A DNA stretch of 64,000 bases from a virus. A program made the translations under genes and the position numbers. The notes beneath the pieces are model-generated. The model did no database searches. It had not been told where the DNA came from and worked only from the letters and a program-made list of their open reading frames with translations. Shown piece by piece: positions 14,228 through 62,358 of the stretch; position 1 is the first letter of the stretch; each line of letters opens with the position of its first letter. Location of the stretch: positions 14,511 to 78,510 of the IMG/VR virus record IMGVR_UViG_3300031566_000014, one strand, 5' to 3'.

Positions 14228-14617
14228 ATGCCAGAGGCGAGCGTCTACGAGGCAATGCGGTGTCTCATCTGCACCCGCGAGCTTGACGGCCTCGAAAACC
14301 TGTCGCTCTACGGGCGGCGGAACATCACGGATCACTGGCTCCCTGGAATATGTGTGTTTTGTGCCCCACGGCTGCATAGGGCGTGGCGAAAGCCGAAAAT
14401 GACACCACGGAGCGGGGGGCCGCGCGAGCCATTGAGCGGGCTTCTGCGGCGGTGCGGGTGCGGGGCGATCCTTCGCAAGTGGCGGAAGAAGTGCAACGTG
14501 TGCGCGGGCGTGGCACGCAAGGCGACGTATCGTGCCGCGAACGCCCGACGGAAGCGGGGTACAACAAAACCTTTCCGCCGCCGGCGGCACGCGCGGAAAA
14601 GTCACGCAGCAGGGTAG
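14228..14617 (+). CDS. basic Cys-rich (Zn-binding) protein
   Basis: CLIC, CVFC, CGCG, CNVC; upstream TTGCAA-17-CATACT. Confidence 0.6.
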   Translation: MPEASVYEAMRCLICTRELDGLENLSLYGRRNITDHWLPGICVFCAPRLHRAWRKPKMTPRSGGPREPLSGLLRRCGCGAILRKWRKKCNVCAGVARKATYRAANARRKRGTTKPFRRRRHARKSHAAG

Positions 14618-56500: not shown

Positions 56501-58130
56501 CACGGGCGCGAAGGAAGGCACCCACCTGTCTGATCTCAAGCACATGCTCGACTTCACCAGTACGCTCGGGCCGGCCATAGCCGACGCCTATCGCAATGCC
56601 ATCGAGACGTTTGTCACAGAGATACCCACGATGGAGGAGTTGCACGGCGAGGAAGGGCAGGCCAAGTTTGTCGAGGGCGGCGTCGCCATCGCAGGCAAGA
56701 AGGGCAGGGCCATCCGCTATCCGCAGCGCTGGCTCATGGCAATGGATGACTTCGCCGTGACCCTCGCCGCGCGGATCAAGGTCGCCATGGTGGCCCACCG
56801 CATGGCCGTCAACGAGGGCTTCAAGGGCGCGGAACTCACCGAGCGCATGCAGGCGCTCATCGCGGACCCCGTATCCCCAGCGTGGAAGAAGGCTATCGAG
56901 CTTTCCCAGGAAGTCACGTTCAAGGGCAAGCCCGACCCCTTCGCCCAGTGGGTGATCAATATCCGCAAGAAGCATCGCTGGGCCTACTTCTCCTTCCCCT
57001 TCATCACGACCCCCGCGCACATCGCCGTAACGGGCATGAAGATGTCGCCCTACCGCCTGCTGCGGCACCTTGCCCTGCCTTACACGGCGGGCGTAGCGGC
57101 CATCACGGGCGACTGGAGCCGAGTCAAGAACTCACTGGCAGGCCACAAGATTGCTGCCGATCTCATTTCCGCCGGCCTCCTGTGGCTCATCATCGGCCAG
57201 GACGACGACGACCCGTGGATTACGGGCAAGGACGGGATCAACGGCCAGAACCGCTACAGCATCAAGATCGCAGGCCAGTGGTGGTCATACTACCGCATCG
57301 AGCCGTTCGCAACTGCCCTCGCCGCCACGGTTGACCTTGGCAGAGGCATCAAGTCGGGCGACCCGTCCGTGGCCGTCCGCGAAGGCTCCATGGGCTTCCT
57401 TCAGCAGATGGGCGACAAGACCTACTTCCAAGGCATCCAAGACCTCTATCGCGCCGTGGGCGAACCCGTAGCGGGCAGGGCAGACCTTGTTGATTCTCTC
57501 GCCACCTATGCCAGCCGCTTCGCGTCCTCGTGGGTGCCCAACTTCATCAAGGCACCCGCCCGCGCCTTGCAGGCCACGATCAAGGAACGCCGCGCCTACG
57601 GCAAGCCCGGCACCCGAGCCGGCCTGCTTCTCGGTCAACGGGCGCTTCAGCAAGCCGAGCTTGCCCCCGGCCTCGACCATCCACGATACGACATGTGGGG
57701 CCGCCCAATGCTCCGCGACGGCTCCCCGTGGAACTACGCCGCAACGGACTTCCTGTGGCGAATGATCGCCCCCGCCCAAGTCGGAAAGACCCAACCCTAT
57801 GTCGGCGATGTGATGGTCTACAACTGGAACCGCCTGCATCCCATGGATGAGTTCCACCCCCGGCCGCCCGACCGCTCCCTGACATGGCGTGGCAAGAAAG
57901 CCTACATGGACGACGCCACGTATGAGAAGTTCATGCAGGAAGTGGGGACGCGCACCAAGGCTGGCTTCGATGCGTGGTTCGCCGTGGCAGAGCGCTACGG
58001 CGCGACACTCGACCCGCAGAACCCCTCGCCCGAAATGAAGAACCAACTAGAGAGTATCCGCGAGAGGGCTACTAATGCGGCGCGCGCCGTCGTGATCAGA
58101 ATGATGGCGGAGCGCGGCGAGTTGAAGTAG
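50553..58130 (+). CDS. large polyvalent / ejection protein
   Basis: 2525 aa; HELGH and HELKH motifs; WYSKL, GGENYRELLL, EIQSDWHQ block; LPD38-like SYYRIEPFA near C-terminus. Confidence 0.8.
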   Translation: MGALDELDAIVGDVPPPAQGQAPATGGSALAELDAILPKRADVAEYAGKERWAEMIPYVGPAVGLERQRITRNAALVAAGEQQEPTPAIVPFQAAGVPAGVNPLTRRMTPESAQGILAKDAAYNEMMERGLTPGAQILQGGAKMVGYATEIAGGGGMATLTRGAARKGLMAIPGIAVAAGKRGIAGTLTRAGIKVAGRVAGETARSLITPSALAGNYEDRTRQGQGPGTALAGAFLDTVIGNVAEQSGEAVLGVAAKIGAKIPVIGKAVTLINGGLRKAWAKAGFSAGAFDAAMKAGGWNGVIAELTEERVEPFLKAVFQGDEWRKIIPSLEQLGVEAAVLSLPMAPGIAMGTMRNAAGRAKAKAEVKKEMDRFVHDAIAKGLGEEVAPPPPQEEAPPALDEAQQAAMAEALALEKQGVAAPTAAEELDQITAAPPAVEAPPQTAPTAPETTPTAPEMPAKEAGAQPVVSEALQEPATQQGPSPATTGEIAAQAPTTERARVHAEFRQSFANLAPAEQESTLAIADAMVFATARASGIDSEDVWKRLNFAEGVATAPATTTEGMAALKKKGLKAVAVTELADSLNATVRALDAPTVDEAMHELGHVGMVWLPTDVRKQAETWAGAKYGKWDVPTKEKFANAFVEWLNGRARAPKGLARVFSDLKKWLTKVFGSLRAVQGLEKQEAIERVFKFLTGEEAGKGAAAQAGPKGESLFAVRDPWELTKEDYVAEGSYGLQQAVFTQAFNQAIKDEYMSAEKDRGKVMRPHKIATVGDALAPEVLALFPRESHGVEIWVASRLNDESFSGFAIGGPTEAGAYRIVMHPQQAAARYVPGLMHELKHLTDILAGKETTPTDAIRRESYAAYRRLPSERRARRFEKSMNNAYVHRLFIERAIEQGRQIPPDVLADYPDLAGKGAAAGAGGKQTLFATRPATNESERDRMAPVWYSKLSQAVDTKMGGRATPQQLMGMLKGAGVKDEEIEWSGLPELLKGKGSVTKAEVQEHLEANAIQVVDVVKGGRPSGEPQWAVVDEDGQPRFSRRFDTEDEAWDYAERYQGEDEPPLDVEQVPGTEAPATKFSQYQAVPGGENYRELLLQMPAAKKAIALEPTVPFNGTGVAYQDGSRQVQGVTTTPWTIGSEHGTITYWPYRYDWSAQRTGAEYVVDSEKMQNAHFKTMEAAVAAIEKSYAGTQRGEDMGAYRSDVFTGQHWSEPNVLAHVRTSDFTDARGKRVLVIQEIQSDWHQEGREKGYGGANVLTKQDAESLGYSVRRSASSRGGSAYFLDGPNLPRGTTNYIGFETEAEAWDTLVAKLRAQMSENAVPNAPFKSTWPTLAMKRMIRWGAENGYDRIAWSTGAQQADVYSLATAVDKLTWNPSDERPGGKYVYGTKVGQGEVVGMGVDEQGNIVNASMDELNGKHLSDAIGKEMAARVMAEPRGELSGEGLKVGGHGMRAFYDQMLVNETNKLVKRYGARVGEVKLLTMDSPVGPFPLDIEVRGGKYWVVDSNRARASEDFGSYQEADAQRQSIMAAAADAAKGRGRTTVHGFDITPAMRDEALGKGMSLFATRPDEEGRPKGVPVPALAMAITRGRAYLDDGVTDFRKWAGAMVGVYTENIKPYLAPIYEALRTEGTHADAMTPRENIRIPRSPKAGKAPGTAKLVTPEGGTPRVALGPRPTPSGAAYLAGLGTSEEARAGVDVLDTEREERRRVSQQIAMLINQRKKFEDGAPEAVTIDERLEKLRERENALTLGGQVPAYAQTPLKPLEDAADARVAADPVAERARIVGMAAANQVPEAVDTYIMDRLVDQIIPEVLTADPAEVPNITIFYDSVRKLRGNVGLVFRTMQDKKLSPAQRRLRAISEAIAFPAKPWLDKMAAAEKAGNMALVAQLRKQRDEELIAFRAILAKHGVDPKNLGKLSKDRRKAAAIHREMITSRSGGWDVVQELYRNILLSGTPTHSANFFSNSAFFAYHFGIRESLTALWNSATGAKEGTHLSDLKHMLDFTSTLGPAIADAYRNAIETFVTEIPTMEELHGEEGQAKFVEGGVAIAGKKGRAIRYPQRWLMAMDDFAVTLAARIKVAMVAHRMAVNEGFKGAELTERMQALIADPVSPAWKKAIELSQEVTFKGKPDPFAQWVINIRKKHRWAYFSFPFITTPAHIAVTGMKMSPYRLLRHLALPYTAGVAAITGDWSRVKNSLAGHKIAADLISAGLLWLIIGQDDDDPWITGKDGINGQNRYSIKIAGQWWSYYRIEPFATALAATVDLGRGIKSGDPSVAVREGSMGFLQQMGDKTYFQGIQDLYRAVGEPVAGRADLVDSLATYASRFASSWVPNFIKAPARALQATIKERRAYGKPGTRAGLLLGQRALQQAELAPGLDHPRYDMWGRPMLRDGSPWNYAATDFLWRMIAPAQVGKTQPYVGDVMVYNWNRLHPMDEFHPRPPDRSLTWRGKKAYMDDATYEKFMQEVGTRTKAGFDAWFAVAERYGATLDPQNPSPEMKNQLESIRERATNAARAVVIRMMAERGELK

Positions 58131-58161
58131 CCCCACCCCCTAGCTTGCGGGCGGGGGCTGC
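58127..58161. terminator. GC hairpin at the convergence of the late operon and the pentamer array
   Basis: GTAGCCCCACCCCC-TAGCTTGC-GGGCGGGGGCTGC. Confidence 0.5.
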
Positions 58162-58890
58162 CTCGCCTTGCCTTGCCGTAGCGATGCATGGTCATGCCGG
58201 GCCTTGCCTCTGCCGGGCCGTGCCTGTCTCCGCCTCGGCTCGGTTGCGCTCTGCCCAGCCATGCCACCGCCGGTCACCGCTGGCCAAGGCAGTGCCTCAG
58301 CGTCGGGCTGCTGCGCATCGCCGTCGCTGCGGTTGCCATGCGCTTCCGGTGCCATGCCTCCCGTGGCCTCGCTCCGCCCCCGCCAAGTAGTGCAGCGCAG
58401 TCCCGTGCTATCGCTCCGCCACGCCAAGCGACGCATCGCGCCGCCATGGCTCAGCTTGGCTCTCCACGCCCCCGCGGCGCTAGGAGCCGCATCGCCACGG
58501 CAATGCAAGGCACCGCCAAGCGCGGCCTGGCCTTGCCCCTGCCTTGGGTCGCATCACCTCGCCGTCTCTGTGCTTGGCATTGCCCCGCCGGGCCGTGCGG
58601 CGCCGTGCCGTCTCTGTGCTTTGCTTCGCGGCGACGGGCGTCCGTTGCCACTCACTGCCTCAGCATCGCGGTGCACTCCTCCGCTGCGCCGTTGCTAAGC
58701 GCCGAGCCGCGCAGCAGCGCCCCTGCGGCGCAAAGTGCGGCTCCGCGGGGCTGCGCCCCGCCGTTGCCGAGCGCCGCCGGACTCAGCGTGGTTCCGCAGC
58801 ACATCGCCATCGCCTCGTAGCGCAAGGTTGCGCGTGGCCTCGACTGGCGCAGCCATCGCGGCGCCCCGCAAGTCCGATCTGGGCACCGCC
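58158..58890 (-). ncRNA. NGC-NN pentamer-periodic array (candidate guide-RNA locus)
   Basis: Minus strand reads GGCGG TGCCC ... GGCAA GGCAA GGCGA GGCAG; ~140 units in ~23 blocks, each usually closed by a hexamer; no credible ORF. Confidence 0.8.
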
Positions 58891-58956
58891 CTAGCCTGTC
58901 ACCTCCTTGGCCTTCGCCAGAGTCACCTCGGCGGTGAAGGCTCCGTGGCCCGCATT
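58891..58956 (-). pseudogene. orphaned original 3' end of the RAMP gene
   Basis: Encodes NAGHGAFTAEVTLAKAKEVTG*, paralogous to NSGMGRF of the RAMP Gly loop. Confidence 0.75.
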
Positions 58957-58959
58957 CAC

Positions 58960-58988
58960 TTGACAGCATCCTTTCCCTGTGATAGAAT
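58960..58988 (+). promoter_or_regulatory. sigma70 promoter for HNH gene (likely leaderless mRNA)
   Basis: TTGACA-17-TAGAAT with TG extension; ATG 6 nt downstream, no RBS. Confidence 0.8.
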
Positions 58989-58994
58989 GACGGC

Positions 58995-59543
58995 ATGCAT
59001 TACCATCGCCGCGAGCCAAAGGTTCTTCGTACATGCGAACATTGCGGCAAGCGATTCATCGTACTCGCGAACCGCATCAGATACAAAGCGTGCAGATTTT
59101 GTAGCCATAGGTGCTACATAGCGTCCTTTGGTCCACGAAGCAAGCGAGTGATATGCCCAATGTGCGGCACAGAGTTTACTGTGCAGATGCATGTTGTGCG
59201 TAAGACTGTGTGGGGGCCATTCTGTTCTCGCCGGTGCTATGGCAAGTGGAGAAGCGCTCATGTGAAGGGCGATAACTGCTCCTGGTGGCGTGGCGGGAAG
59301 ACCGTGTACTACCAAGGGCATTGGAAACGACAACGCCAAGCCGCGAAACGGCGCGACAATTGGACGTGCCAGTCGTGCCATAGAACATTCGCGCCGCGTA
59401 GCCGCGGAATTGACGTCCACCATGTAATCCCCTACACCGTGGGCCAAGACCCGGAGATTGCGCACGCCCTCGACAACCTCATTTCGCTTTGTCGGCAGTG
59501 TCATAATGCACTGCACCGGGGGCAAGAACGCACTCGTGAATAA
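58995..59543 (+). CDS. HNH homing endonuclease with Zn-finger repeats
   Basis: CEHCG..FCSHRC, CPMCG..FCSRRC, WWRGG, RDNWTCQSC, DVHHVIP, NLISLCRQCHNALH; lower GC. Confidence 0.9.
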   Translation: MHYHRREPKVLRTCEHCGKRFIVLANRIRYKACRFCSHRCYIASFGPRSKRVICPMCGTEFTVQMHVVRKTVWGPFCSRRCYGKWRSAHVKGDNCSWWRGGKTVYYQGHWKRQRQAAKRRDNWTCQSCHRTFAPRSRGIDVHHVIPYTVGQDPEIAHALDNLISLCRQCHNALHRGQERTRE

Positions 59544-60261
59544 ATCTACCCATTCCGGAATTCCTCCACTGCCCCAACCCGCGAAGCTGTCCGTAGTCGA
59601 ACCACTCCTGCACCATCGGAAGCAGTTCCTTCCGCAGCAGCTTCACTTGGAACCGCAGCATGGTCCCAGCGGGCACGCTCTGCGAACGGGCCAGCGCCAC
59701 GCGCTCGCCCTGGGCCGTCTGCGCGCGAAGCGGGCGCTCGCAGTACCCGATCTCTGCGCCTTCCGGCAGTTCCAGCCGAATGCGGCGCGGCGTCACGAAG
59801 ATCAGGCCGTCGATCTCCTTCTTGTACGCCTTGAGCTTCTTGCTCTCCGTGCCGTCAGCCCGCCGCAGCATCCCGCAGGCGTCCTTGAAAAAGCCCTTCA
59901 CGGTGTAATCGTACACGAACGGGCAGCCGTCAGCATCCTGCATGAAGACGGTCGTGCCCAGGGCGATCTCCTCGTCCACGGGGATGGCCTCAGACTCGTC
60001 CTCGGCCTCGCCGTTGTCGGGCCGCTTCGACTCCACGAAGGTCTTGTACACCTCCTTGTCGCCGGGCGAGGTGCCCAACATCTGCTCCGTCAGCGTCAGG
60101 ATCACGTCCAGAGTAAGGAAGCCGTTGCGTTTCGCGGCTGCCGTCGCCAGCGCTTCCGATACGGGGGCGGCGCTGCCGCCGGCACCCGGAGTCACTACCT
60201 CGTGCTCCGCGTGCGCGCTCCGGGGCACCTGCCTGTGTTTCGCCATTCCCAATTCCGCCAT
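59479..60261 (-). CDS. solitary RAMP / Cas7-like RNA-binding protein
   Basis: AGGAG RBS; LTLTEQMLGT strand, YTVKGFFKDAC helix, ERPLRAQT..GER thumb, SVPAG, terminal Gly-rich loop GLGQWRNSGMGRF. Confidence 0.8.
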   Translation of the reverse strand: MAELGMAKHRQVPRSAHAEHEVVTPGAGGSAAPVSEALATAAAKRNGFLTLDVILTLTEQMLGTSPGDKEVYKTFVESKRPDNGEAEDESEAIPVDEEIALGTTVFMQDADGCPFVYDYTVKGFFKDACGMLRRADGTESKKLKAYKKEIDGLIFVTPRRIRLELPEGAEIGYCERPLRAQTAQGERVALARSQSVPAGTMLRFQVKLLRKELLPMVQEWFDYGQLRGLGQWRNSGMGRFIHECVLAPGAVHYDTADKAK

Positions 60262-60356
60262 GTCACGTCTCCTATGCAGCCTGGTCGTGTGTGTCGGCAA
60301 GCGGACGGCTGCTTCCCGCTTGCCTCTTGCGGGCGCGCCGCTCGGCGCGTTCCCTG

Positions 60357-60596
60357 TCAGCTTCTCCTCACGGAGTCCACGATGGCGTCGAGATGCGCGT
60401 CGGATAGGCGCGGCGGATGCTTCCGCGTTTCCTCGGCCTGGCGCGCGAGTTCGGCGGCGATGCGCTCCTGCCAGTCGGCGGGCTTGGCGGGGCCGGTGCC
60501 GCGCCACTTGGTCTTGCGCTCGCGCATCAGCTTGGCGCCCTCGCGGCGCGCCCGGCTCCGAGCGGCCTTGGCCCAGGGGCAGGGGCGGGGCTTCAT
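60357..60596 (-). CDS. small basic hypothetical protein
   Basis: Coupled ORF upstream of the RAMP gene. Confidence 0.5.
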   Translation of the reverse strand: MKPRPCPWAKAARSRARREGAKLMRERKTKWRGTGPAKPADWQERIAAELARQAEETRKHPPRLSDAHLDAIVDSVRRS

Positions 60597-60751
60597 TGCT
60601 CGTCCTCCTCATCCACGGGTTCGCACAGCACATCCTCCTCGGCGTCGAAGGCGTCGCACGGCTCCGCGCATGCGGGGATGTAGTCGTGCTCGCCATAGTG
60701 CGGGCAGCCGCCAGCTTCGCACGTCTCCCAGCGCGGGCATCTGACTCTCAT
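60593..60751 (-). CDS. small Cys/His-rich protein
   Basis: AGGAGG RBS; CPRWETC..CPH..H..C..C. Confidence 0.55.
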   Translation of the reverse strand: MRVRCPRWETCEAGGCPHYGEHDYIPACAEPCDAFDAEEDVLCEPVDEEDEQ

Positions 60752-61074
60752 GGCGCGTCCTCCTTTCCCTCCGCCTTCCGGCGAGACGTGCGGGCGGCCT
60801 TGGCGGCTCCCCAGGCTCTCCACCCGTCTGTGTCCATGGCCTTCCTGTGCTCTGGCGACGGCAACGCATCTCGATAGGCGTCAAGCGCGTTCGCGTGCTG
60901 CCACGTCATCGTCAGCGCCCGCTCGTAGGCGGCGAAGGCGAGCTTGACGGCGGGGTGAAGATAAGGCTTCCGCCAATCGCAGCACATGCTTGGGCACACC
61001 CACCAGGCGTCTCCTGTGTGGATATCGTCCACGAAGATGTAGACGTTCTTGTCACCGCACTTTGGGCACCTCAT
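60748..61074 (-). CDS. Zn-ribbon hypothetical protein
   Basis: MRCPKCG...CPSMCC; AGGAGG RBS. Confidence 0.6.
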   Translation of the reverse strand: MRCPKCGDKNVYIFVDDIHTGDAWWVCPSMCCDWRKPYLHPAVKLAFAAYERALTMTWQHANALDAYRDALPSPEHRKAMDTDGWRAWGAAKAARTSRRKAEGKEDAP

Positions 61075-61099
61075 GATGAGAGCCTCCTAATTCCTACGA

Positions 61100-61378
61100 T
61101 CATCGGCTCTCCTCCTTCTTTGGCAGCGCCGACACGCAATGCACGCGCGTCCCGTCGAGCCAGTAGACGGACCCCGTGGAACCCTTGACGCGGAAGCGAG
61201 GGAAGTACTCGTTGTTCTCCACGACGACCGCGAAGCGCATGTCGTCGCCGTGGAAGTAGGCGACTTCGGTGCCAGGCGGGAACGCCTTCTTGCACGCTGC
61301 CGCCTCGCGCTCCTGGGCGTCTCTGCGGGCGCAATAAGCCTTCTGGTAGACGGCCAGAGCATGCTGTTCTTGGGTCAT
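61100..61378 (-). CDS. hypothetical protein
   Basis: Start MTQEQ after AAGGAGG. Confidence 0.6.
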   Translation of the reverse strand: MTQEQHALAVYQKAYCARRDAQEREAAACKKAFPPGTEVAYFHGDDMRFAVVVENNEYFPRFRVKGSTGSVYWLDGTRVHCVSALPKKEESR

Positions 61379-61671
61379 CGGCTGTCCTCCTTCGGTTGCG
61401 CGGCCTCGCGCCGCGCCCTCATGAATGCGACTTCCTCCCTCTGTGTGTGCTCGACCGCCCCGGCCGCGAGCGCCTCGCCCCGCTTGCGTTCCGTGAGATC
61501 GTAGTGAGCCTTGTACGTCCCCCTCGCCTGACACCATGCCGAGCGCAGGCCAATGAGCAGGGCGAACCCGTCGAGCTCCCATGGCGTGTCGGCGTAGAGG
61601 TGGGCCGCGTGCCGCCAGCGCCAGTTCGCATTCGGACAGCAGGGGAACGGCGGGCCGACGTAGACTGCCAT
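61375..61671 (-). CDS. DUF4031 family protein
   Basis: MAVYV...HLYADT..EL..FA..IGL...W.Q...HYDLT..KR..A...GA. Confidence 0.85.
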   Translation of the reverse strand: MAVYVGPPFPCCPNANWRWRHAAHLYADTPWELDGFALLIGLRSAWCQARGTYKAHYDLTERKRGEALAAGAVEHTQREEVAFMRARREAAQPKEDSR

Positions 61672-61674
61672 CGG

Positions 61675-62358
61675 TCAACACTCCTTCGGTTCCTCGACCA
61701 CCTCGAAGCGACACCGCCAGAACCACTCGTTGGCGGCCAGAAGCTCCGCGACGGGCCGCTTGAGCACCGCCGCCAGCATCGTGTGGTAGCTGGCGAGCGC
61801 GGTGGCGCACGGTCGGAGTCGCAGGCCGTAGTTCACCCACATGTCCGAATGGGGCGGCTTCAACCGTTCCACCAACTCCTCGATGGCGTCCTGCTCCGTG
61901 CGGCACAGGAGCCTCTGAGGCTCGGCGCTGAGGCACAGGAGCCACTGCGTAGCCGCCCGCGAGGGCAGGCAGTAGGAGGAGCAGCGGCGCCATTGGATGT
62001 TGTACTGTGAGAGTTCGTCCAACGATGCGTGGTAGACCCAGCCCCCGGCACCTTGGAATCTCTTGGTGAACTCGTCCCAGCACCACTGCTTGTCGATGCT
62101 CCGCCAATGCGGCACCCCGACGTGGTAGACCTTGCCACGGCGGTAGCGGGGCTTATAGATGCGCGGGGAGTCCATTCTGCCGTCCGGCAGCCAGAACGCC
62201 CAGTGGTCCGGCTCATGGTTGTAGAGGTCGGCATACAGGCCGGGCAGATTGGCAGGCTGGTCCTTCATCTCCCGGCTCGTCTGCACGATGTCGCCAAGCT
62301 CGCGGGCGAGCACTAGCGGCGCCTTGGGCCATCCGAAGCCGATGCAGGGGGTCGTCAT
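61675..62358 (-). CDS. ASCH/PUA-like phage protein
   Basis: QTSR, PRY..G, LPSRAA, EPQRL...TEQDAIEE, NEWFWRCRFEVV. Confidence 0.6.
   Translation of the reverse strand: MTTPCIGFGWPKAPLVLARELGDIVQTSREMKDQPANLPGLYADLYNHEPDHWAFWLPDGRMDSPRIYKPRYRRGKVYHVGVPHWRSIDKQWCWDEFTKRFQGAGGWVYHASLDELSQYNIQWRRCSSYCLPSRAATQWLLCLSAEPQRLLCRTEQDAIEELVERLKPPHSDMWVNYGLRLRPCATALASYHTMLAAVLKRPVAELLAANEWFWRCRFEVVEEPKEC

Follow-up and report, generated by a model that had tools for sequence, protein, structure and literature searches.

The stretch of soil phage DNA analysed here (64,000 nt, hereafter the window; positions 14,511 to 78,510 of the IMG/VR virus record IMGVR_UViG_3300031566_000014) carries a gene for a Cas7-like RAMP protein resembling Vipr of the phage VIPR systems, a pentamer-periodic array resembling a guide RNA and, between the two, an HNH endonuclease gene in the opposite orientation. 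Very probably, the 3' end of this vipr-like gene was invaded by a cassette with a free-standing HNH homing endonuclease, within the 21 nt that encode N-S-G-x-G-R-F/Y. The insertion point lies within the codons of the conserved Gly-rich loop (G-loop) of the RAMP gene, G[LTI]GQWR-NSGxGRF. The cassette would comprise a promoter, the HNH gene directed opposite to vipr, a foreign loop copy with a tail, and a degenerate loop copy at its other end. The foreign loop copy and tail appear to be functional, so that the RAMP open reading frame (ORF) stays complete, and the native tail and the guide-RNA-like array, formerly located directly after the gene, would have been pushed 606 nt downstream. The evidence comes from an HNH-free allele that sets the limits of the insertion, the foreign composition of the insert, the conservation of the target, and the recurrence of insertion at the same codons by another HNH lineage. 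An earlier note on this DNA, made from the sequence alone, had already proposed that an HNH gene interrupts the Gly-rich loop and supplies a replacement 3' end, and the finding of a cassette at 58937–59560 that is absent from the other allele agrees with it.

HNH-Free Allele and Limits of the Insertion

Logan contigs of four soil metagenomes were mapped on positions 57600–60900 of the window. The presumed source run, X1, covers the whole region; runs X2 and X5 yielded no contig over the HNH gene and were not counted as evidence. Run X3, whose soil sample and study are not those of the source, contains a contig (contig 22, 335 nt, depth 3.9) that matches positions 59739–59561 with 5 mismatches in 179 nt and positions 58936–58821 with 8 mismatches in 116 nt, its flanks being 93–97% identical to the window. 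Between these two segments the contig has 18 other letters instead of the window's 624 nt, joining 58936 to 59561. On the minus strand the junction reads CAG TGG AGG AAC AGC GGC TGC GGG CGG TAC ACC GCC GAG, corresponding to QWR-NSGCGRY-TAEV. This motif scores 23.3 bits on the family matrix described below and continues in frame into the tail that adjoins the array in the window.

The X3 allele is unlikely to be an assembly artefact, since an artefact would not produce 18 letters that spell the family motif in frame. Therefore, the allele with the HNH gene arose by insertion and gained a net 606 nt, the RAMP gene was once contiguous with the tail and the array, and the boundary lies inside the codon of Asn234, with the AGG codon of Arg233 being native. 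The original contiguity of gene and array, supposed in the earlier note, is also seen in many HNH-free relatives, in which pentamer periodicity begins at the RAMP stop codon. The same note had anticipated an HNH-free allele reading NAGHGAF; an uninterrupted allele continuous with the tail and the array was indeed found, but it reads NSGCGRY. Judged from this single low-depth contig, the site appears to be polymorphic for presence or absence of the insert between close relatives, with the empty site intact.

Other searches for close relatives were negative: exact scans of IMG/VR and of metagenome contigs with the 27-nt HNH-free junction gave no match, a protein-based scan of metagenome contigs recovered no RAMP relative with more than 61% identity, and megablast of positions 57000–62000 against GenBank phages returned no match.

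Second Copy of the G-Loop Motif

A HMMER profile of the C-terminal 20–30 residues proved powerless, giving just 6 bits for the live motif, and an 11-column ungapped position-specific scoring matrix (PSSM) derived from 93 homologues was used instead in a six-frame scan of the whole window (103,045 positions). The live motif scored 23.2 bits and the sequence NAGHGAFTAEV (58924–58956) was second best with 15.7 bits, followed by the next position with 7.2 bits; when the complete 64-kb window was dinucleotide-shuffled 200 times, only 2 of the shuffled sequences reached 15.7 bits anywhere. This downstream copy lies about 600 nt downstream of the live motif, on the same strand and at the compositional boundary. 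By these scores its likeness to the family C-terminus is beyond chance, in line with the earlier expectation that homologous RAMP C-termini would resemble NAGHGAFTAEV: the family pattern is G[LTI]GQWRNSG[KM]GRF, and several tails read TAEVE or TAEVEVVK.

The three 21-nt copies of the motif (empty, live, and downstream) differ pairwise at 11–12 of the 21 nt, with 11 differences between the NAGHGAF copy and the HNH-free motif NSGCGRY and also between NAGHGAF and the live copy, while the flanks differ by just 3–7%; NAGHGAF is therefore not simply the displaced native motif. In addition, its His and Ala, at the positions of K and R, are outside the five commonest residues listed for 116 homologues. 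The copy was probably brought by the cassette, or otherwise represents a strongly diverged native segment. Neither motif copy of the invaded allele appears to resemble the empty site, as immunity to its own nuclease would require.

Composition and Layout of the Invaded Locus

The GC content is 0.51–0.56 across positions 58950–59550, compared to 0.65–0.75 on either side, and the insert has a GC content of 0.546 versus 0.639 for the window. The GC content at third codon positions (GC3) is 0.87 in the body of the RAMP gene, 0.61 in the HNH gene and 0.81 in the downstream copy with the native tail (58894–58956), and only 0.375 in the eight live loop codons from R to F, which are minority codons throughout; each codon of NSGMGRF has a relative usage of 0.04–0.24 in the phage. 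The break in codon usage is located within the live RAMP ORF and not at its stop, and the displaced native tail has native-type codons. The AT-richer codons described earlier for the end of the RAMP ORF were confirmed by the GC3 and the minority usage of the loop codons; the AGG codon (Arg233) counted among them is native.

The features of the locus are listed in Table 1. The RAMP ORF ends with GLGQWRNSGMGRFIHECVLAPGAVHYDTADKAK and is convergent with the HNH ORF, its last 65 nt (59479–59543) overlapping the HNH gene, so that the tail runs antisense into it as had been noted. The segment 58956–58891 on the minus strand translates as NAGHGAFTAEVTLAKAKEVTG followed by a stop codon, with the array directly next to it, as described earlier; the phage-like codon usage ascribed to it is consistent with the GC3 value given above.

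Table 1. Features of the invaded locus and loci with the other HNH type (window coordinates unless a locus is named).
Feature	Position	Strand	Remarks
Live Cas7-like RAMP (Vipr-like) ORF	60261–59479	-	260 aa; chimeric ORF, with native sequence as far as 59561 and cassette sequence between 59560 and the stop
Live second half of the G-loop, NSGMGRF	59542–59562	-	AT-rich minority codons; replacement copy from the cassette, in the segment lacking in the X3 contig
Replacement tail, IHECVLAPGAVHYDTADKAK and stop	59479–59541	-	Overlaps the final 21 HNH codons in antisense
Inserted cassette	58937–59560		624 nt in place of 18 nt of the HNH-free allele; net gain 606 nt
HNH endonuclease gene	58995–59543	+	182 aa
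Promoter-like site of the HNH gene	58960–58988	+	TTGACA-17-TAGAAT, extended -10; directed at the 3' end of the RAMP gene
Degenerate second copy of G-loop codons, NAGHGAF	58936–58956	-	At the promoter end of the cassette
Displaced native tail, TAEVTLAKAKEVTG, and stop codon	58891–58935	-	Colinear with the X3 HNH-free contig, there directly after NSGCGRY
Pentamer-periodic non-coding array (vrRNA-like)	58158–58890	-	733 nt; starts immediately after the displaced stop codon
Second-type HNH loci	L098:2498–3896; L067:2423–3743; L128–L152

Conservation of the Target Gene and its Relation to VIPR

The RAMP-like protein has more than 6600 homologues, about 200 aa long, none of them with a Pfam domain. 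In 116 of the best 120 homologues the C-terminus follows the pattern given above, with a further 5–25 residues after it, and the replacement tail IHECVLAPGAVHYDTADKAK resembles family tails such as THEVRIVA. The W, R, N and three Gly residues of the loop are invariant in the 116 homologues and the Ser is present in 113 of them. All 28 invariant columns of the family are retained in the window ORF. These numbers are in agreement with the earlier view of the gene as conserved and widespread, and its use as a repeated homing target by an unrelated HNH lineage is described in the next section.

The invaded gene is predicted to encode a minimal RAMP fold, with an RRM core, thumb and G-loop. The AlphaFold2 (AF2) model has a predicted local distance difference test (pLDDT) score of 80.7, and Foldseek matched it to subunits of Csm, type VII and Cmr complexes and to Cas7-11 (E-values of 3e-8 to 1e-5, probability 1.0), with weak matches to Csm4 and a Cas7 chain obtained using the family profile. 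The replacement end, with which the 28 invariant residues are kept, is folded in the model as a terminal beta-strand at residues 240–247. At the other end of the protein, the ORF has a 47-residue extension (60121–60261, minus strand) missing from homologues; residues 1–40 are mostly modelled with low confidence (mean pLDDT 41–53), and a helix is predicted at residues 34–46. The start of the ORF is uncertain, and no nearer ATG, GTG or TTG is evident.

VIPR systems, described in 2026 preprints (10.64898/2026.04.26.720920, 10.64898/2026.04.26.720927, 10.64898/2026.10.15.759431), consist of a lone phage RAMP, Vipr, and arrays of GGY/NN pentamers that guide DNA binding; homing is not mentioned in these preprints. 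In the solved complex of SUSP1 Vipr, the D-W-R of the G-loop touches the GGY bases (10.64898/2026.04.26.720927). In the window RAMP, Q-W-R is located immediately before the insertion point. The system shares with VIPR a lone minimal Cas7-like phage RAMP, the W-R pair in the G-loop, and an adjoining pentamer array on the same strand, and differs in its degenerate, nGCNN-like array and the lack of a sequence match to SUSP1. A tblastn search against 50,697 phage records with E-values up to 10 returned no SUSP1 record, and according to the preprint RAMPs share little sequence similarity. On the basis of the modelled fold and the architecture, the invaded gene and the array could be classified as VIPR-like.

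The array, adjacent to the gene and on its strand, has a lag-5 identity of 0.40–0.51 (58150–58890) versus about 0.25 elsewhere. On its minus strand, and on this strand only, GGY..GGY is enriched (19 seen versus 3.5 expected), and three GGY units in succession occur 7 times with 0.2 expected. The consensus is degenerate and closer to nGCNN than to the strict form GGYNN. With a strict GGY filter just four stretches of seven units are retained, and decoding of the guides by the published rule is therefore not straightforward.

Another HNH Lineage at the Same Codons

For the RAMP family, 80 IMG/VR loci and a further 80 metagenome loci were examined. In two of the IMG/VR loci, L067 and L098, a second motif copy was found 640–730 nt downstream of the first. 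The ORF between the copies is on the same strand as vipr, encodes about 200 aa, and matches phrog_3377 at 1e-45 and, weakly, NUMOD1. One more case of this second type was found among the metagenome loci. Full-length relatives of the second-type HNH in IMG/VR are located directly after the vipr loop motif in 24 of 25 loci, and in 22 of these relatives a second motif copy is present at the 3' end, where it frequently forms the in-frame C-terminus of the nuclease itself; many of the loci are near-identical, and they represent about seven sequence types. Among relatives sharing the nuclease domain only, none of 55 was found near the vipr loop motif. The replacement end supplied with the second-type HNH has the form ...GR[YM]VWDELD..GN[VI]IGGN.... 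In the invaded loci L128, L147–149 and L152, the pentamer periodicity begins after the stop codon of the second copy.

Comparison of filled and empty alleles was possible in two cases. The flanks of L067 (filled) are almost identical over hundreds of nt to those of L068 and L072 (empty), and its live motif is identical to theirs as far as the first base of the Phe/Tyr codon. The second copy in L067 (KTGKGKFVWAES, followed by a stop) is just about 60% like the native end and, therefore, came with the cassette. In the other pair, L147 (filled) and L109 (empty), the flanks are 95% and 93% identical, and the second copy (KTRKGRFTWEEIQ, followed by a stop) is 86% identical to the end of the empty allele. 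Mismatches between L147 (1130–1451) and L109 amount to 9.4% in the 320 nt adjoining the insert versus 3% further upstream, a gradient that looks like a co-conversion tract. Taken together, the data point to the vipr loop codons as a repeated homing target, with two unrelated HNH lineages at the same few codons.

Three further observations concern this lineage. The long tail ...VWDELD..GN[IV]IGGN... is also present in the endonuclease-free loci L087, L092–L097, L102, L106, L114, L119, L121 and L122; this tail is either the lineage from which the cassette-borne end was derived or the footprint of an endonuclease since lost. L150 and L151 carry a second-type endonuclease without a recognisable second motif copy, and the array begins after the endonuclease. 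Finally, L129 contains a full-length second-type relative (57% identity) with no vipr motif beside it; this endonuclease may recognise another target, or its gene may have been relocated.

HNH Gene and its Promoter

The HNH protein has a nuclease domain of the beta-beta-alpha-metal type, matching Pfam family PF01844 (E=2.9e-11, residues 125–175) and, among the PHROGs, phrog_1271 and phrog_8446 (both HNH) at about 1e-20. The core pattern CxxC...DVHH...N...CxxCHxxxH is read as CQSC...DVHH...DNL...CRQCHNALH, with the full set of catalytic His/Asn/His residues and zinc ligands present. The N-terminal part contains two zinc-ribbon-like modules, with YacG/zf-FCS-like Pfam matches. The gene is present in a single copy in the 78.5-kb genome.

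The near-consensus promoter previously ascribed to the HNH gene was confirmed at the sequence level: the promoter-like site agrees with the consensus at 11 of 12 positions and has a TG ahead of the -10 element. It is the sole such site in 58000–60500 on both strands, while shuffled sequences give 0.3 on average. A leaderless HNH transcript is plausible, since the -10 element ends 6 nt ahead of the ATG codon.

As regards the array, no sigma-70-like promoter was found ahead of it on the minus strand, the only one in 58000–60500 being that of the HNH gene, which is directed against the RAMP gene. For its expression the array may therefore need transcripts that read through the antisense HNH gene. 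More speculatively, the strong convergent HNH promoter could throttle such read-through from vipr to the array. No RNA sequencing run was listed as containing this DNA.

An intron was also considered and rejected: an Rfam scan of 57900–60400 detected no group I or II intron, the sole match being a SAH riboswitch at chance level (E=0.42), and the HNH gene is antisense to the gene it interrupts.

Alternative Explanations

The HNH protein could be a genuine VIPR accessory nuclease (Vap), an effector working with the RAMP–RNA complex and not a selfish element, as would fit the location of its gene between the RAMP gene and its array and the HNH-domain Vap proteins and nuclease-bearing types III–V listed in the VIPR discovery preprint. 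However, the gene is absent from a close relative, in which the RAMP gene and the array are contiguous, and its composition is foreign. It converges on vipr from a promoter of its own and overlaps the gene end in antisense; moreover, it breaks the coding sequence, which then depends on a duplicated end. Beside other vipr genes, no homologue of the HNH was found. It is present in none of about 160 sampled RAMP-family loci, and the few with a second loop copy hold the other, mobile HNH. An accessory function is thus very unlikely. Even less credible is that NAGHGAF-TAEV is a chance look-alike and that the HNH gene simply occupies the spacer between an intact native gene and its array. With 21 codons the stretch is indeed short, and it deviates from the family consensus at three of the seven loop residues, but it is second best among all PSSM positions with a score rarely reached in shuffled sequences, the codon-usage break is located inside the live ORF and not at its stop, and the X3 contig runs the native loop straight into the TAEV tail.

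The cassette could also be real and have been moved by ordinary or illegitimate recombination between co-infecting phages, with an HNH protein that is inactive or serves packaging or host takeover. HNH proteins in phages also assist terminases, the cassette is a singleton with no known donor, and cleavage by its HNH protein is predicted from sequence. This scenario is nevertheless improbable, since the insertion is exactly in the highly conserved 21 nt and about half of the bases are changed in each of the two flanking copies, a footprint to be expected of target-site immunity. All catalytic residues and zinc ligands are in place, an independent HNH lineage is clearly mobile at the same codons, and the HNH gene is far from the packaging genes and compositionally foreign.

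Several points weigh against homing as the origin of the insertion, in addition to the HNH-domain Vap proteins mentioned above. The HNH-free allele is represented by one short low-depth contig from one run. No close relative of the window HNH was found in IMG/VR or among 5.8 billion proteins, the best having 37% and 29% identity, and none of its 43 distant IMG/VR relatives is near a vipr motif; the element therefore has no known donor, and no second insertion of it is known. Related copies at the homologous site were found for the L098-type HNH (24 of 25 loci) and not for the window HNH. The NAGHGAF copy belongs only probably to the cassette and may instead be native sequence altered by mutation. 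Finally, the endonuclease activity of the HNH, the site that it would cleave and the resistance of the allele in the window are predictions.

Invasion by a homing endonuclease is still the explanation we favour. From what is known of homing endonucleases, we infer that the HNH protein would recognise the uninterrupted loop codons in co-infecting relatives and cut or nick them, and that repair would copy the cassette into the cut allele. Both motif copies of the invaded allele would be resistant, since roughly every second base in them departs from the target.

Comparison with Known Homing Systems

The classical homing endonuclease genes (HEGs) known from phages occupy intergenic positions or divide a gene into two halves that both still work, and a limited literature search found no described case of a phage element that supplies a replacement 3' end. 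The closest described architecture is that of mobile endonuclease ORFs (mORFs) with a foreign C-terminus in fungal mitochondria, known from atp6 of Allomyces macrogynus and atp6, atp9, cox2 and nad3 of Glomus sp. (PMC3630166). In both situations the endonuclease gene is located in the 3' part of a conserved gene and has brought along a diverged gene end that is read in frame with the native 5' part, and the native end is left downstream as an unused or silent duplicate. The gene is uninterrupted in close relatives, and the two copies are far more diverged in DNA than the flanks (PMC3630166). The window case differs in its bacteriophage host and in its target, an RNA-guided RAMP gene. Its nuclease is of the HNH type, unlike the LAGLIDADG or GIY-YIG nucleases of mORFs, and is encoded in antisense, with its own promoter and a 3' end overlapping the new gene tail. 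The duplicated segment is just about 21 nt plus the tail.

Free-standing homing endonucleases of phages, such as those encoded by the seg and mob genes of T4, F-CphI and the ICP1 HEGs (PMC2988022, PMC2790892, PMC6083498, PMC10055350), are also comparable. Common features are a stand-alone nuclease gene of foreign composition that adjoins or interrupts a conserved gene, its presence in some and absence from other close relatives, and signs of flanking co-conversion, seen here in the L147/L109 pair.

Implications for VIPR Systems

The insertion is a clear but fairly ordinary case of homing, found in the newly described effector gene of VIPR. The location of two unrelated selfish nucleases at the same 21 nt marks the G-loop as the most constrained DNA of the vipr gene, which agrees with the structural role of the loop. 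The trick of the replacement end, well documented in fungal mitochondria, is seen here in a bacteriophage with both filled and empty alleles. The HNH protein and the 21-nt site could be considered a candidate enzyme–target pair, possibly with a new specificity.

Nuclease genes between vipr and the array are not necessarily accessory effectors, since some are parasites of the gene, and this affects the annotation of "Vap" nucleases and VIPR types. One could also speculate, although this is doubtful, that homing endonucleases specialised on the vipr G-loop codons are players in the inter-phage conflict served by VIPR, cutting the vipr gene of a co-infecting rival at its most constrained site, swapping its 3' end and spreading guide arrays by co-conversion. 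If true, homing would drive both sabotage and horizontal exchange of VIPR guide arrays.

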